Assembly (NCBI GenBank): GCA_963664115.2
Contig: CAXWPJ010000002.1
Coordinates: 320,001 to 384,000, forward strand
Direction of reading: 5' to 3'
Length of the DNA: 64,000 nt
DNA from: Terriglobia bacterium
GTDB taxonomy: Bacteria; Acidobacteriota; Terriglobia; 20CM-2-55-15
Part shown: positions 35,079 through 58,038 of the stretch, in pieces
Layout: each line of letters opens with the position of its first letter
Position numbering within the stretch: position 1 is the first letter of the stretch
Made by a program: the position numbers and the translations under genes
The notes under the pieces: model-generated
Databases searched by the model: none
What the model was told of the DNA's origin: nothing
What the model saw: only the letters and a program-made list of their open reading frames with translations

Positions 35079-35519
35079 GTGATGCGAAGAACGCTTTCGG
35101 TTATAGCTGTCGTTGTCGGTCTCTTGTTGCCGGGAACGCTACCCCTCAGCGCCCATCACGCTTTTTCGTCGGAATTCGATGGAAATAGGCCGGTTGAGCT
35201 GACAGGGACCGTCACCCGGATGGCATGGGTCAACCCCCATGCATGGATCTACATGGACGTCGAACAGGCGGACGGCACGGTGGAACAGTGGATGGTCGAA
35301 GGGGGCACCCCCAATACACTGATCCGGAGAGGCTTGAGGCGGTCGGACCTGCCGGCCGGAACGGAGATCAAGGTCAGTGGCTTTCGTTCCAAGGACGGAA
35401 CTCTCCGCGCCAATGGCACGAACATCACGCTGGCCGATGGACGACAGCTGTTTATTGGCTCGCCGGGTACGGGTGCCCCGTTAGAAGGGCGCGAAACTAT
35501 CGGAACGCAGGAGAACTAG
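35079..35519 (+). CDS. DUF6152-like exported protein
   Basis: AHHAFSSEFD and WVNPHAWI; its TAG stop is the IS630 target. Confidence 0.85.
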   Translation: MMRRTLSVIAVVVGLLLPGTLPLSAHHAFSSEFDGNRPVELTGTVTRMAWVNPHAWIYMDVEQADGTVEQWMVEGGTPNTLIRRGLRRSDLPAGTEIKVSGFRSKDGTLRANGTNITLADGRQLFIGSPGTGAPLEGRETIGTQEN

Positions 35520-36669
35520 TGTACCCCGCTCGAAGTAATGTAACTAAAATAGCTTTCCAACGTCCAATAGAGAATGAGGAAAGCACCGACCATTGAATTG
35601 GATGACAAGCAGCGGATGGAGTTGGAGCGACTGAGTCGAAGCCGGAGTACATCGGTCCGGTTGGCGGAACGATCCCGAATTGTATTACTGGCCGCTGAAG
35701 GTCGGAACAATTATGAGATCGCCGCCCGCTTGGAGATCACGCGCCAGAAAGCGGGCCGCTGGCGCAATCGTTTTGTGGAACAGGGCTTGGCTGGGATCGA
35801 AAAGGATGCGCCGCGAAGCGGACGGATTCCCACGATCAGTCGCCGGAAGCGAGCCCGGATCGTCAAGAAGACACTGGAAGAGAAGCCCCCGAACGCGACG
35901 CACTGGAGTCGGGCCTCGATGGCGAAGGCCGTTGGCGTGAGCGAGTCCACGGTCGGGAAAATCTGGCGGGTCCATGGACTGAAGCCTCATCTGTCACGAA
36001 CCTTCAAACTATCCAACGACAAACGATTCGCCGAAAAGCTGGAGGATGTGGTCGGTCTGTATCTGAGCCCACCGGAAAACGCCATTGTCTTGTCCTGCGA
36101 TGAGAAGAGCCAGATGCAGGCCCTGGACCGCACGCAACCCGGGTTACCTCTGAAGAAGGGGCGGTGTGGCACCATGACCCACGATTACAAACGTAACGGG
36201 ACAACCACGCTTTTCGCCGCGCTCAACATCCTGGACGGTTCGGTCATCGGAACCTGCATGCCAAAGCATCGCCATCAGGAATGGATCCGGTTTCTGAATC
36301 AGATCAAACGCGCCATGCCGAAAGATAAGGAGATCCACATTATTTGCGACAACTATGCGACTCACAAACATCAGAAAGTCGTCAACTGGCTCAAGCGTAA
36401 CAAGCGTTTTCATGTGCACTTCACGCCAACCAGTGCGTCGTGGCTCAACATGGTCGAGCGCTTTTTCCGGGATCTGTCCGAGCAACGACTCCGGCGTGGC
36501 GTTTTCCGCTCGGTCCCCGAGTTGATCCAGGCCGTGGAGGACTACCTCGCTCGTCACAATGAAGACCCGAAACCCTTCATCTGGACTGCAACGGCTTCCG
36601 ACATCCTTGCTAAAGTCCAGCGCGGCCGGCGAAATCTTGATAAGTTACAGTCTGTTTAACGGGGACCAC
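35519..36669 (+). mobile_element. IS630-family insertion sequence, 1151 bp, copy 2
   Basis: Same ends and transposase as copy 1 in opposite orientation; TA duplication at CTAG. Confidence 0.95.
35574..36659 (+). CDS. IS630-family transposase
   Basis: Protein identical to 3214-4299. Confidence 0.95.
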   Translation: MRKAPTIELDDKQRMELERLSRSRSTSVRLAERSRIVLLAAEGRNNYEIAARLEITRQKAGRWRNRFVEQGLAGIEKDAPRSGRIPTISRRKRARIVKKTLEEKPPNATHWSRASMAKAVGVSESTVGKIWRVHGLKPHLSRTFKLSNDKRFAEKLEDVVGLYLSPPENAIVLSCDEKSQMQALDRTQPGLPLKKGRCGTMTHDYKRNGTTTLFAALNILDGSVIGTCMPKHRHQEWIRFLNQIKRAMPKDKEIHIICDNYATHKHQKVVNWLKRNKRFHVHFTPTSASWLNMVERFFRDLSEQRLRRGVFRSVPELIQAVEDYLARHNEDPKPFIWTATASDILAKVQRGRRNLDKLQSV

Positions 36670-37004
36670 TAGCAGGACGAACTGAAACAGAGTTCAATGG
36701 GGGCGGGACCGGACCGCAACCGATTCCGGGTTCTTCAGCTCGTGGGGCGGACCCTATTTCCCTTGCATTTCGGTTGCTGGAGCGAAAGAATTGCCACACA
36801 CTCATCCCTCCAGCGGGAACGGGCCTCGTGTTCTTCCTAAACCGATGTACAAGGGTTCCGTATGAATGAATATGTGAGTGGTGAGTTGTAAGTTCTAAGT
36901 TTTAAGTAATGGATGAGTTACCACGAAGCTATTCGCTACGCTTGCGGCGCGATCGGCGTCCCTGCCGATCTGACTGCACCGCAGTTTTCTAAAGAGGGGA
37001 CTTC

Positions 37005-39326
37005 ATGCACGTAACGCAAAGTAAAACGTTAATGGCAATTTTGGCGGTCACCGTGATCGGGATTGCGGGCGTCTGGGCCGGGCTTGTTCCGGAGTCGGCC
37101 CCGGGAGTTGTTCCGGAGGCGACCCCGGAAACCGCCGAGAGCGTCGCGCGACTGGTTTCCGTCCAGGAATTCCCCCAACTCGACGCCTGCGCATGGGATA
37201 CCCCTGCCAGCTTCAGTTCGGGTCCAGCGCCATCGTTAAGTTCGGAAAATCTGCTCGGTGCCTTGGAGCAACGGGGGGGCGCTTCGTTTCTGCTAGCTGG
37301 CTTCCAGCAAGAAGCGCTGGAAATGCGACGGGCGGGACGGGGTGGACCCGCGGAATTCGATGCCGACAGGCAGGGGACCGCGACCCATCTGCGCACGCTG
37401 GCGGATACCTATCCCACCTTTACCGCTGTCGGCGTCAATACCAACACCAATGAAGTGATCCTGCAGGACAACAATCTATGGTCCGCCTACATCTTCAACC
37501 GGCTGGATAACACACCGCCGCGCGCGCGATTCAGCGAGCCGAAGCGGATCATCCAGGGGCCTGAGACCGAGATGCAGTTCAACAACGGCCTCTACATCGA
37601 TCCGGTGAACGGGGATATGTATTCGGTCGAATCGGACACGGGCGACAAGATGGTGGTGTTTGCCCAGGACGCCGGGGGTAACGTCGCGCCCAAGCGCATC
37701 CTGAACACACCCCATCGAGTGTACAGCGTTGCCGTCGACGAAGTGAGGGAGGAGCTCTACATCACCGTGGAGTACCCGCCCGAGGTGGTCGTGTACAACA
37801 AGAATGCCGAGGGGGATGAACTGCCGCTGCGGCGCATCGTCGGGGACAACACCCAGCTGGAAACACCCCACGGGATCGCCGTCGACTCGAATCTCGGGCT
37901 CTTGTACGTGAACAACTGGGGCCATACCACGGATTTTGGAGATTCACGAGGTGGGACGACGGGTTACGAAGATAATGGCAGGAATATTTCTCCTGTTGGC
38001 GATCCCTCTACGGGCCGGTTCAATCCGACTTCGATCACGATCTATTCGATCGAGGCGAACGGGGACGTGGCACCGATACGTGTGATTGAAGGGGACCGGA
38101 CGCAGTTGAATTGGCCTGGAAACATGACCGTGAACCAGGAGACCGGGGACCTGTATGTTGCCAATGACATGGATCACTCGATCCTGGTTTTCACAGGGTT
38201 GGACACCGCCGACGGCAACGTGGCGCCGACGCGGGTCATCAAGGGTGATCAGACCAAGCTGGTCCACCCGACCGGAGTGGCTGTGGACACCGTGAACCAG
38301 GAGTTGTGGGTGTCCAACCTGGGTAACGCATCGGGGGTGGCGTTTCCGCTCGAGGCCGATGGGAACGTGGCGCCCTTGCGGGTCGTACGTGCGGCGCCGG
38401 AGGAACACCAGTCGTTGATTTTCGGTCGGACCGCGGCGGTGACGTATGACCCCAACCGGGAAGAAATCCTGGTACCGAACTGAGTGAACCATCCGCAGGT
38501 TGCGGCCTTCGCCAGGTTGGCGGAGGAGAACGCGGTTCCGACACGTGTGATTGAAGGTGTGGCGTCGCGGCTCGGCCGGACAATGCATGATGTGATGTTC
38601 GATGCGATTCACGATGAACTCGTCGTGACGAGTCCATTCGCCCAGGCGATTTTGACATTCCGGGGCGATGCGGACGGCGAAGAAGCCCCCCTGCGCATCA
38701 TCCAGGGTCCAAACACCCAGATCGTGAGCGAACGGGGTTTGGATAAAGTCACCATCGACCCGGTCAACAACGAGATCCTGATCGCGACCAACCACGGAGA
38801 CGATCGAGACCCACTCGGAGCCATTCTGGTATTTCCGCGGGAAGCGGACGGCGATGTCGCTCCGATCCGGGTTCTGAGCGGGCCCGCCACCCAGTTCGGG
38901 GGCGGCCGTCCATCGATGCGGGTCGACAACAAGAACGACCTGTTGCTCGTCGCTGAGAGTGGCGGTATTTTGATCTTTGATAGAACCGCGAGCGGGAATA
39001 CGGCGCCGATTGGAAGGATTCCAGGACCGAGCGGCAACCAGTTCGACGTCTACAACAATCTGATCATCACGCTGAGGGGCGACTACCTCTACGCCTGGGA
39101 CATCCACACCAGGGGCGAGGGCATCCGTCCGGTCTGGAAGATCTCAACTCCACTCGGGGCGCGGGCCAACCAGACGGGACTTGTTCTGGATCCTGTTCAT
39201 GAGGAGGTCATCGTCGCGACCGGAGCCGGAAACCAGATTCTGGTGTTTCACGTTCCCGAAATATTCGCGGATCGCAGCGAGACGCCACGCGCCTCGACAC
39301 CATTCCGCTTCTCAGCTGAGGAGTAG
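37005..39326 (+). CDS. Exported beta-propeller repeat protein, putative selenoprotein (TGA 38481-38483)
   Basis: Two same-frame ORFs separated only by TGA; the blade repeat (GNVAPxRxI type) continues across it; SECIS-like hairpin follows. Confidence 0.75.
38484..38512 (+). promoter_or_regulatory. Putative bacterial SECIS element
   Basis: GUGAA-ccau-CCGCA-[GGU]-UGCGG-cc-UUCGC directly 3' of the UGA. Confidence 0.6.
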
Positions 39327-39712
39327 TTCCAGCCCTCGTCATCGGTGAGAAACCGCTGAACTTCATGGGAGCCGATCTTCGCGGTCGGCTCCCCCGCTAC
39401 CCTGTTCGAGAGTCGTCGATATCGCATGGCCCGCGCGCGCGCAAAATTCATCAGAGTCCAAACACGGACGTTCAAAAACCCCATTATTCCATCCCGTTCT
39501 CATTAGTGTCTGCGGACCCGAACGCGCATTAGTCTCTGTCGACAATCATTAAGATTCCAGCGATTCGGCGTCCGGGGCTTTTCAATTGACCCGCCTGGCA
39601 TCGATCTATAGAGTTTCGCATTAGAGTGTCGGCCTTGGATTCGACTTGCAGGTAAGAATCGATTCTCGTTATCGGAATTTTCTGAAAGACATCTATAGAC
39701 GGCGGGGTGCCT

Positions 39713-40753
39713 ATGCTTAAGGGATCTAAGTTCTGGGGCAGTTTCTTTGTAGTCGCGGTTTTGAGCACGGTCATACAACCTGCGGCTCTCGCTGCCCAAT
39801 TCACGACGGCTGAGACTTTCGATATCAACCGCTTCTCGCCGAATGGTGGTCAGTTCGAAACGTTTTACGTGACCGACTCCGAACCACTGGGGGCCTTGCT
39901 GGATTCAAACCTGATCTCCGCTGAAACCCGGGTCCTGCTGACCGAAACTGCGACGGGAAAGCTTGCTTTCCTGACGGACCAGATGTCCTTTCACCATATT
40001 GCTCAAGGCGAGGCAAACGGGCAGCCGTGGATGGTGACGTTTTGAGTGGTCTGTAATACCGGGGTCAGTATGATCCCGACGATAGACGGAAAGCTGTACC
40101 ATTTCGAAAACCCTGGTATCTATGACGGCCTCTTCCTGATGGCCGATACCGAGACCTCCACGTTCTGGAACCACATCACGGGTGAAGCTCTTTACGGAGA
40201 GTTGGTGGGGCAGCGCCTGCCGCTATCGAACCTGCTCCAGATGAACGTCGAACAGGCGTTGGCGATGGATCCCGACATTGAAATCGCGCTCTCGCCGTAT
40301 GAGGGACCACGGATCGCGGGCGGGCAGTACGCCCGGGACGACGAGACCAGGGATCTGATGCCCCGATTTGCTGGAACGCTCGGCACCGAGGATGAACGCC
40401 GCCCCCGGATGGAACTGGGCCTCGGTGTCTGGACAGATCAGACGAACCGTTACTACGCGGTTGAAAGCATTCGTGCACAAGGGAATTTCGTCATCGACGA
40501 GCTCGACGGGCGGAGCGTTCTCGTATACGTCGATCCGATTTCATCCACGCCCGCCGCTCTTTACGTGGATGCCGGTGAAGCGCGTTTCGAAGGAAGCGAA
40601 ATCCATCTCAGTGACGGCACGGTCGTTCGGGCGGGGAGTCTCGTTGGGCCCGATGGCGGGCCCAGAAGCGTGGACCGTCCCCTGCAGCTGTTTACCCGGT
40701 GGTATGGGTATGCCCGGACGTTTCCAGGAACAGAGATCTTTGGCGAAGATTAG
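39713..40753 (+). CDS. DUF3179-like selenoprotein (UxxC, TGA 40043-40045)
   Basis: MVTF-U-VVC-NTG sits at the family's CxxC position; M.D.ET.T.W.H.TGEA..G motif follows. Confidence 0.85.
40049..40087 (+). promoter_or_regulatory. Putative bacterial SECIS element
   Basis: Upper stem CGGGGUCA-[GUA]-UGAUCCCG; lower stem GUCUGU/AUAGAC. Confidence 0.7.
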
Positions 40754-40789
40754 GGGTAAGACGCGTTGAATCTATTGGAGGCGAGAGCG

Positions 40790-41359
40790 ATGAAACTGTG
40801 GGTGGGTGTCTTCGTTCTGATGGCGTTGATGGCCGTAGGAGCAATAGCGGAGCCTGTGGAGTCAGGAGCGCAAGAACTCGAAGTGTGCGAGGCAGACGCT
40901 GAGATCGCAAACCTCAGCTTCACGCTGAAGGATATAAACGGTGAAGACCTCGCCCTCAGCGACTATGCAGGCAAAGTCATCCTGTTGGACTTCTGGGCCA
41001 CGTGGTGTGTCCCGTGCCGGATCGAGATCCCGGGTTTCATTGAGCTGTTCGACACATACGAATCAGAAGGTTTCATCGTCCTGGGCGTGTCGGTGGACGG
41101 TCTGGACGAGCCCGACGTGTCACTCGATGAAACCGTCACCAGGCTCCAGGCCTTCGCCGAGGAGTTACAGATGGACTACCCCATCCTGCTCGGCGCTCGG
41201 CGTCAGGACGTACTGGATGCGTATGGGCCACCGTACGGTTTCCCAACTACATTTGTGATCGGGCGGGATCTCAGGATTTGTGGTCAGCACACGGGCTTTG
41301 CTACCAAGGAAACTTTTGAAGCCGAGATCCGCGCCGCCCTCGCGGATTCCGGCCGCTAG
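40790..41359 (+). CDS. TlpA/ResA-like thiol-disulfide oxidoreductase
   Basis: DFWATWCVPCRIEIP and cis-Pro FPTT. Confidence 0.9.
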   Translation: MKLWVGVFVLMALMAVGAIAEPVESGAQELEVCEADAEIANLSFTLKDINGEDLALSDYAGKVILLDFWATWCVPCRIEIPGFIELFDTYESEGFIVLGVSVDGLDEPDVSLDETVTRLQAFAEELQMDYPILLGARRQDVLDAYGPPYGFPTTFVIGRDLRICGQHTGFATKETFEAEIRAALADSGR

Positions 41360-55803: not shown

Positions 55804-58038
55804 GTGAAATTTATGATACTCGTCTTTATCTGCTTGTTACTCCTTGCCCTGCCTCACGGTATGAGTGCGCAAGACGGCAACCCGACCGCAGGATCAACGC
55901 CGCCGGATGAGCTCTCCATATACGCGGGGAGACCCCGAGTAAGCGCGCTGCGCCTCGGCGCGGACGAAACCGTAGATATCGACGGCCGTCTCGATGAAGC
56001 CGCATGGGGGCGCGCCATTCCCGCCATGGATTTCACGCAGCAAGATCCGGATCTCGGCCAACCCGCAACTGAACGCACGGAGGTCCGATTCCTGTTGAGC
56101 GGCAACACGCTTTACATGGGAGTCGTCTGTTACGACTCCGACCCCGGTGGCGTGATGGCGAACACGATGCAACGCGATGCGCCGCTGTCCGCCGATGACC
56201 GGTTCATGTGGACATTCGATACGTATCTGGACGCCCGTTCTGCATATTATTTTGAAATGAATCCCAATGGCTCCATGGGAGATGCGCTGATCCTTTCCAC
56301 TAACTCTACCAACGCCAGCGATGCGGGCCGCGCCTGGGACGGCATCTGGAACGGAGAGGTTCAGGTGAGCGAAATCGGATGGACCCTCGAAATCGCAATT
56401 CCGTTCCGAACCCTCAACTTCGATCCGAATGCACCGGCATGGGGTGTGAACTTCCAGCGGACAATCCGGCGGAAAGAGGAAGAAAGTCTCTGGACAGGAT
56501 TTGAACGCAACCAGGGATTGAATCGAGTGTCGAATTCCGGATTGCTGGTAGGAATTTCCAACGTCAGCCAGGGTGTAGGACTCGATGTGCAGCCTTATGT
56601 CACCGGGAGATACATCGATGCTCCCGGACGAAATCGGGCATCCGAGTTCGAGGGAGATGGCGGTGTCGATTTCACTTACGCCATCACACCCGCACTGAGA
56701 GGACAATTCACCATAAACACGGACTTCGCCGAAACCGAGGTCGATCAGCGACGGGTCAACCTGACACGCTTTCCACTGTTTTTTCCGGAGAGGCGTCTGT
56801 TCTTCCTCGAGGGCACGACAGTTTTTGAGTTCTCAAGGGACCCGGGCGCCGTCAGGCCTTTCTTCAGCCGCCAGATCGGACTCGACGTCGACGGCCAGCC
56901 GCAGCGGGTTGAATACGGTGCAAAGCTGACGGGTCAAATCGCAGGCAGAGACATTGGCTTGATCCATGTCCGCACTGCGCGTTCGGGTGACCGTGTCGGC
57001 GAAGACTTTACCGTCTTGCGAGGCAAAACGAACTTCTTCCTGCAGTCCTATGCAGGCCTGATTTACACCCGACGAGCGGAGCGAGACACCGAGGTCTCGG
57101 ACCGCCACACGGTCGGGGCCGATTTCTCCTTGCGCACGTCCAGCTTTCGGGGAAACGAAAACCTCGAGCTGAGCGGTTACTACGTCTGGAACACAAGCAT
57201 CGACACCGAATCCGGAGGCGCGAACTTCGGCTTCCGGCTCGATTATCCGAACGAATTTTGGGACGCACGGGTATCGGTCCGCGAGGTAGGGGAGGGTCAC
57301 AACCCCGCCGTCGGTTTTATTGACCGTCGGTGAGTCAGACACTACCGTCCCGCTGTGGGGTTTATGCCACGGCCCGCCAATAGCCGTTACGTCCGCAATT
57401 TTTTGTTTGACGGGGGCCTGCGCCTGACCACAGATCTCGAAAACCGTACGCTCACACGCACGACCCCAGTCCGGGCGGATGTGTACTTTCAGTCCGGAGA
57501 CAGCATTCGATTCACGCTGACGCCCACGTATGAGTTACTGGAACGAGACTTCGAGATTTCACCGGGGGTGGTGCTTCCCGCTAACGGCGCGTACGACTTC
57601 ACGCGCTACCGCGTGACGCTTTCAACAGCGGATCGGCGTGCATTATCTGTCACCACCCAGTATGAAAACGGAGGTTTTTTCTCGGGAAACCGTCGGAACT
57701 TCGACTTGAATATCGGCATCCGGCCGATTCCGGGTGTCCTCGTCAATGTGAACAACGAGTGGAATCGCATCGAATTGCCGGAAGGTAGTTTCTCGACACG
57801 GGTACTGCGGCTCAACGCGAACACACAGTTCAGCCCTTCGATCTCTCTGGTCAACAACCTGCAGCACGATTCGGTGAGCCATGTTCTTGGCTGGCAGTCC
57901 CGCCTTCGATGGATTTTGCGGCCGGGCAACAATTTCTATTTCGTGTACGCCCACAACTGGCTGGACGAAACGGGGACCGAATGGGTCACTCTCGACCGCA
58001 GCGCCACTACGAAGCTCACCTACACGCACCGATTCTGA
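55804..58038 (+). pseudogene. DUF5916-like protein interrupted by an in-frame TGA (57331-57333)
   Basis: Collinear with 42500-44773 on both sides of the TGA and ends YTHRF. Confidence 0.75.

Follow-up and report, generated by a model that had tools for sequence, protein, structure and literature searches.

A predicted selenoprotein family with a double beta-propeller fold in Terriglobia

Two adjacent open reading frames (ORFs) in a 64,000-nucleotide stretch of the genome of a Terriglobia bacterium (in the following called the window) very likely form one gene, in which an in-frame UGA is read as selenocysteine (Sec) by means of SelB and a stem-loop downstream of the codon. As the best explanation of all the evidence taken together, it is reasonably likely that the product is a SelB-decoded, exported double propeller acting as a periplasmic enzyme through the selenolate of Sec493. 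The family is apparently unpublished and uncatalogued; its decoding mechanism is known, its fold class is new and its copy number is unusual.

Reading frame and decoding of the UGA codon

The ORFs 37005–38483 and 38484–39326, like all features of the gene described here located on the forward (+) strand, share a common frame and are separated solely by the TGA at 38481–38483, which is codon 493 of 773. Read through, the gene (37005–39326) encodes a protein of 773 residues (P0001) with U493 and a single cysteine, C62; full-length Cys homologues comprise 620–816 amino acids. The ORF coordinates, the single TGA, the lone Cys and the joined sequence YDPNREEILVPN-U-VNHPQV given in the original prediction all agree with the DNA. 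A Shine-Dalgarno-like GAGGGG (36994–36999) lies 5 nt 5' of the ATG at 37005, whereas the 25 nt upstream of the GTG at 38484 contain no Shine-Dalgarno sequence and the second part has neither a ribosome binding site (RBS) nor a signal peptide, as had been noticed before. Equally, the context PN-U-VNHP is free of CxxU, as claimed, and also of UxxC and UxxT, and the only Cys is located 431 residues upstream of U. Because two contigs from two RNA runs, X12 (38129–39073) and X15 (37945–38690), span the TGA with 0 differing letters and the TGA recurs in 13 of 13 paralogs, an assembly error is ruled out. A third RNA-run contig across the TGA has 19 differences over 571 nt; neither strand nor level can be obtained from such contigs.

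A tblastn search, which had been proposed for homologues with Cys or TGA at this position, gave 13 family genes in the genome (designated G000) with pairwise identities of 38–97 % (median 44 %), and all of them carry TGA at the aligned codon. Two database searches yielded 233 distinct homologues, the 13 of the genome itself excluded. Among the 159 of these proteins that run through the site 158 have Cys and one (P0039) has Trp, and the remaining 74, known as protein records, end exactly one residue before it. At 131 distinct sites in fetched DNA the codon is TGA in 122 and TGC or TGT in 8 cases, one misaligned row reading CCG, and TAA or TAG occurs at none of the 131. Trp, Arg or Gly homologues or pairs of genes with other stop codons, named in advance as speaking against Sec, are therefore not the pattern found. 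Among the best 150 matches to representatives at 50 % identity, 17 of the rows spanning the site have Cys, Ser or Gly stands there in 2 weak ones, and another 25 rows end at the site. An in-frame TGA is present in 148 of the 150 matches listed from genomes of the order and in 149 of the 150 listed from 16 further genomes, a frequency far beyond chance.

The genome (4.89 Mb, 97 % complete, 1 % contaminated) possesses the complete set of genes whose presence was to be confirmed, namely selA (E 2.6e-129), selB (over the cut-off), selD and the tRNA-Sec (71.6 bits), and its selD itself has an in-frame TGA. Of 18 carrier genomes tested, 15 possess a selB gene, among them 10 of 10 high-quality ones. 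Since selA is also present in most members of the order that lack the family (30 of the 35 genomes of the order have it), this co-occurrence is necessary but not specific. One genome (G456; 91 % complete, 1 % contaminated) contains two selB genes over the cut-off (C197:6211–8094 and C17:10596–12518).

It is very improbable that the two ORFs are separate genes coupled by TGA-GTG, or the remains of a gene destroyed by a nonsense mutation. Although the codon directly behind the TGA is GTG in 106 of 121 genes, other codons, GTA, GTC and CTG among them, stand there in the remaining 15, and 167 of 169 full-length proteins retain the Val, which argues for a conserved residue and not for a start. The first ORF would stop soon after a complete propeller and the halves are stored separately in databases as well as in ESM Atlas clusters; however, the cut falls inside a blade, RBS and signal are absent from the second part, TAA and TAG never occupy the site and the hairpin described below is under selection in TGA genes only. 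A true nonsense-type TGA in the window offers a contrast: the in-frame TGA at 57331 (G000:C2:377331) in a DUF5916-like gene, which is accompanied by a SECIS-like hairpin matching the rules, aligns to N, G, D or A in 22 paralogs and is likely a nonsense mutation rather than a Sec codon. A reading of UGA as Trp or Cys through a changed code or suppression, for which the Trp of P0039 could be quoted, can practically be dismissed, as TGA terminates 48 % of 1128 long ORFs in the genome, the sole tRNA with a UCA anticodon is the tRNA-Sec and Cys stands at the site in 158 homologues, Trp in one.

Two hairpins downstream of the UGA

For the reading as Sec the stem-loops behind the codon are of particular weight. 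The hairpin CCGCA-GGU-UGCGG, originally regarded as SECIS-like in spite of its short spacing of 14 nt from UGA to loop, is present at 38493–38505 (hairpin 1), but the likely SECIS is the stronger next one at 38506–38526 (hairpin 2), which had been overlooked. The latter, CCUUCGCCA-GGU-UGGCGGAGG, has 9 base pairs and a loop at 38515–38517, 31 nt after the UGA, and folds with −13.5 kcal/mol (z −3.7). According to the available part of a recent catalogue, the bacterial SECIS (bSECIS) consensus comprises a loop of 3–9 nt, a G in the first two loop positions, a distance of 16–37 nt from the UGA and a minimum free energy (MFE) of at most −7.5 kcal/mol (PMC13188914). Hairpin 2 agrees with this consensus in all four points. 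Hairpin 1 was rejected as SECIS: its loop is poorly conserved (GAU in 97 and GGU in 7 of 121 TGA genes), its spacing lies outside the 16–37 nt and its −5.3 kcal/mol is above −7.5. Judged by sequence conservation, SelB probably binds to hairpin 2 and not to the GGU hairpin 1.

The loop of hairpin 2 contains GG in 121 of 121 TGA genes, and its MFE is −7.5 kcal/mol or lower in 116 of the 121 as compared to 0 of the 8 Cys genes known as DNA, a small control; one misaligned row was dropped from the comparison. In an alignment of 118 sites 94 % of its cells are paired and 31 cells are compensatory, with change on both sides, against a mean of 7.1 after shuffling and with 0 of 500 shuffles as high; the sites were picked by sequence pattern, and the relatedness of the sequences inflates such tests. 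In five genes a synonymous double change from C-G to U-A was found. Furthermore, synonymous codons are frozen in this region, namely Arg AGG in 115 of 121 TGA genes (genome usage 7 %), Pro CCG in 118 and Ala GCG in 117. Hairpin 1 is partly conserved: it has four compensatory cells, and its pair +11/+21 is intact in 119 of 121 TGA genes as compared to 2 of the 8 with Cys. It is thus not neutral and may serve as an auxiliary element.

The family shares with known bacterial selenoproteins (FdhA/fdhF, SelD) the in-frame UGA, the Cys homologues, SelA, SelB, SelC and SelD and, 16–37 nt downstream, a stem-loop whose loop reads G[G/U] and whose MFE is −7.5 or lower. It differs from them in its beta-propeller fold, its predicted export and the lack of a redox motif, in having two hairpins stacked, with a loop distance of 31 nt (16–25 nt in the other candidates of the genome), in having up to 27–41 matches per genome and in apparently many switches between Sec and Cys. 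The SelD, the DUF3179 and two Prx-like genes of the same genome likewise have G-starting triloops, on stems of 7 bp. A first scan of the genome for SECIS patterns was too permissive (82 matches, mostly noise); a stricter one gave 23 candidates and recovered only 6 of the 13 family genes, and hence is no census. Other Sec candidates, of kinds already known, lie at C2:701068, C2:786105, C5:131175, C9:74840 and C10:288080, which we take from their motifs to be Prx-like (UPYC, UPFC), OsmC-like, deiodinase-like and rhodanese-like.

Fold, conserved residues and proposed function

A hydrophobic N-terminal segment (residues 9–23; 37029–37073) with a mean Kyte-Doolittle value of 2.63 over 15 residues is predicted to be a signal peptide or membrane anchor. 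Such a segment is present in 195 of 218 family proteins starting with M, in the N-termini of which Tat or lipobox motifs are nearly absent. AlphaFold predicts twelve blades (pTM 0.81 for P0001 and 0.86 for the Cys homologue P0002). Propeller 1 (residues ~134–465; 37404–38399) consists of six NHL-type blades, mostly with a pLDDT above 90 and with conserved residues (D155, N157, D211, H289 and N387), and residues 134–465 match the NHL domain of TRIM71 (Z 28.4, rmsd 2.2, 246 aligned) as well as SOQ1, NHLRC2 and PAL. Propeller 2 (residues ~473–752; 38421–39260) has six blades according to the DSSP pattern and the blade register and is likely closed by strand 128–133; the rows of 7x36 and 2qe8 span 121–757. 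The beta-propeller of the original prediction is therefore borne out as a predicted fold, but as two six-bladed propellers and not as one.

The NHL profile PF01436 reaches 28.9 bits, over its cut-off of 20, while SGL (22.6 < 26.3), YncE (22.1 < 400) and Pgl (21.1 < 370) stay below their curated cut-offs, although homologues bear the names SMP-30/lactonase, YncE or 6-phosphogluconolactonase in databases. A sequence search of the PDB gave only weak matches to Pizza and TRIM NHL proteins, and among the solved double propellers searched by Foldseek none matches the whole protein (TM ≤ 0.34). Six-bladed NHL propellers (TRIM2/3/71, Brat, the PknD sensor, NHLRC2, SOQ1) superpose on propeller 1 with Z 25–29 and an rmsd of 2–3 Å over ~250 residues, but share only 15–22 % identity and are not arranged in tandem as in the family. 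NHLRC2 and SOQ1 pair NHL with a thioredoxin-like domain, whereas the reactive Cys/Sec of the family is located inside the propeller and not in an attached thioredoxin domain.

In the predicted model U493 occupies the B-C turn of blade 7, and H528 stands where blade 8 begins; by general propeller topology, both are presumably on the top face of propeller 2. The motif R525-T-x-H528 (38577–38588) is conserved and provides the predicted partners of Sec. R525 and H528 are present in 169 of 169 full-length proteins and 131 of 131 TGA genes and are kept in the majority of distant relatives; together with the Cys/Sec they are the near-invariant non-structural residues. Conservation also marks Cys62 (37188–37190) in an N-terminal RLVSV..CxW motif as a candidate resolving Cys. 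It is invariant in an alignment of 143 sequences (A3) and present in 150 of 169 full-length proteins; the segment around it is unplaced in two AlphaFold models (pLDDT under or near 50). Of 234 closer members whose N-terminus is complete, 233 have Cys62 or Cys194, and Cys62 is missing almost only where Cys194 is present; in the 13 paralogs of the genome, 10 have Cys194 and the other 3 Cys62. A strict swap between the two is only partly true, as both are found in 22 of the 234 proteins and in 26 of 117 TGA genes. The Cys at the site is not simply half of a structural disulfide, because it is the only Cys in the distant relatives P0251, P0265 and P0268. Nor is a resolving Cys universal, since a second Cys is absent from several of the distant Cys relatives. 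Coevolution, analysed on 288 sequences with an effective number of ~133, yielded nothing usable, either between the domains or for Cys62.

From these features the following course can be proposed. SelB bound to the hairpin at 38506–38526 would cause the UGA to be read as Sec, and the product would be an exported, periplasmic double propeller with the Sec493 selenolate as reactive group. Arg525 and His528 would be close to Sec493 on the top face of propeller 2 and may tune and position it. Sec493 might attack or reduce a small substrate; a second Cys (Cys62, or Cys194 in other paralogs) would then resolve the selenium intermediate. The paralogs, often encoded beside genes resembling those of TonB-dependent receptors, would be substrate variants. 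For the functional part, in which an exported or periplasmic enzyme uses the selenolate at a Sec-His-Arg site, the resolving Cys is mobile and the paralogs are specialised for different substrates, we infer a chance slightly better than even. Against it speak the absence of a thioredoxin fold and of a CxxU or UxxC motif, and the fact that TRIM2/3/71 NHL, Brat and LRP6, to which the fold is most similar, are domains for binding and not enzymes.

Sec493 could also be decoded in the same way but serve, with His528, as a metal ligand in a propeller of the hydrolase or lyase type, such as PAL, paraoxonase or the SMP-30 lactonases, which we consider unlikely. These proteins belong to the same fold class (Z 20–25), with conserved His, Asp and Asn on the top face; in propeller 1 of the family D155, N157, D211, H237, H289, N387 and N438 are conserved on the presumed top face and could bind a metal. 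PAL (Z 25.0), lactonases (Z 24.0) and PON1 (Z 21.1) are among the fold matches, in line with this role, but the weak Pfam matches to SGL, lactonase and arylesterase fall below the cut-offs and several of the conserved residues are generic positions of NHL blades. The Cys/Sec-Arg-His site of the family is on the second propeller. The paired presence of Cys62 or Cys194 suits redox cycling better. We know of no Sec in PAL, SMP-30/gluconolactonase or paraoxonase.

Still less likely is a decoded but non-catalytic protein that would work with TonB-dependent transporters in the periplasm, as a binding or sensor partner, and use a Sec-Cys bond as redox latch. The ligand-binding NHL/YWTD propellers among the top fold matches, the enrichment beside TonB-receptor-like genes and the large expansions of paralogs would all suit binding proteins; yet Cys/Sec-Arg-His is invariant even in relatives without a second Cys, and most characterised selenoproteins are catalytic, as far as the available part of the catalogue goes (PMC13188914). 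Since the UGA falls just after the complete propeller 1, it is conceivable that the selenium supply switches between a one-propeller and a two-propeller product, albeit improbable. SELENBP1 (selenium-binding protein/methanethiol oxidase), which is not known to be UGA-encoded, is not among the fold or profile matches listed for the family. It is likewise a propeller linked to selenium, according to the accessible part of the source (PMC10362175).

Distribution, evolution and genomic surroundings

The family is present in 13 of 35 genomes of the order and in 28 of 301 genomes of the class, chiefly in two families (12 of 34 and 12 of 14 genomes). Among 400 other genomes sampled across the phylum it was found in one, using a short query. 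Up to 27 and 29 matches per genome occur in the same genus, and 27 were counted in a single-contig genome and 41 in a draft of 83 % completeness. The named records are mostly from Acidobacteriota/Terriglobia, and one short contig is titled Verrucomicrobiae. A DNA run labelled 'sponge metagenome' contains 59 % of the words, from which no habitat claim is drawn. A large sister group of multi-repeat proteins (P0243, P0248, P0256 and others; up to 1792 amino acids, 4–11 matched stretches) shares the blade repeat; the Cys/Sec site is absent where checked.

On a FastTree tree of 274 sequences, which is rooted at the midpoint and biased in its sampling, the site has changed its state at least 27 times, compared to 80–90 times after shuffling. 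Several Cys groups are nested among Sec genes, and the AGG codon persists in 5 of the 8 Cys genes. These patterns suggest repeated reversion from Sec to Cys, which is called rare in bacteria in the available part of the catalogue (PMC13188914). The most distant relatives have Cys, and we infer one early gain of Sec from Cys followed by reversions. A recent duplicate of the region 36909–39329 lies at G000:C9:1076925–1079345 (96.8 % identity). The two copies differ at only 1 position in 37455–38504 but at 42 over the gene's initial 450 nt, which hints at gene conversion.

A TonB-receptor-like gene is located within 5 kb of 8 of the 13 paralogs as compared to 7.6 % of random positions, a count that comes from clustered, non-independent sites with seeds drawn from the neighbours. 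In loci of at least 6 kb from other genomes, 14 of 39 contain such a gene; the assignment has support from Pfam. No fixed operon was found around the family genes; a molybdopterin oxidoreductase, accompanied by a HAD hydrolase, and genes of the DUF6152 type also recur nearby. One subfamily lies beside the molybdopterin oxidoreductase cluster and the HAD hydrolase in 6–8 of 84 loci, and the same genes are next to the duplicate copy (G000:C9:1080438–1085940). Downstream in the window the gene 39707–40753 (+) has an in-frame TGA at 40043–40045 (TF-U-VVC) with the hairpin GGGGUCA-GUA-UGAUCCC and belongs to the DUF3179 UxxC selenoproteins, a known family; it is followed by a TlpA-like redoxin (40766–41359). 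An IS630-like element (35516–36672) lies ~330 nt upstream of the propeller gene, and the genome contains 25 further full-length copies with at least 99.5 % identity.

The original prediction stated that NHL-type selenoproteins had been reported, but none was found in the literature searched. In the available part of a 2026 catalogue no propeller or NHL family is among the 119 families, and the families of Haft and Tolstoy 2025 appear in its table (PMC13188914). The parts seen of BSepDB (PMC13326102), of the deep-Sep study (PMC12013277) and of PMC1088965 likewise contain no mention of NHL or propellers. With P0001, each of its two halves and five homologues as queries, NCBIfam 20.0 gave no match near the cut-off. 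Literature searches brought up no description of the family; a groundwater MAG study with unvalidated candidates could list it. We regard it as an even chance that this is the first class of beta-propeller selenoenzymes, with a Sec-His-Arg site, a moved resolving Cys, 20–40 copies per genome in two families of Acidobacteriota and many reversions from Sec to Cys.

If this is true, the catalogue of selenoproteins would gain a fold without listed precedent. Among 8000 candidates the two database searches gave 841 and 3226 matches, and it is probable that databases contain thousands of 'YncE/lactonase' entries which are wrongly split halves. In bacteria the largest selenoproteomes known so far comprise 46–63 selenoproteins per genome, as given in the accessible part of BSepDB (PMC13326102); a single uncatalogued family alone would approach this size, and in some Acidobacteriota a single Sec family may take up tens of genes. 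With its many natural pairs of Sec and Cys genes, the family would offer material for testing why Sec is kept or lost.
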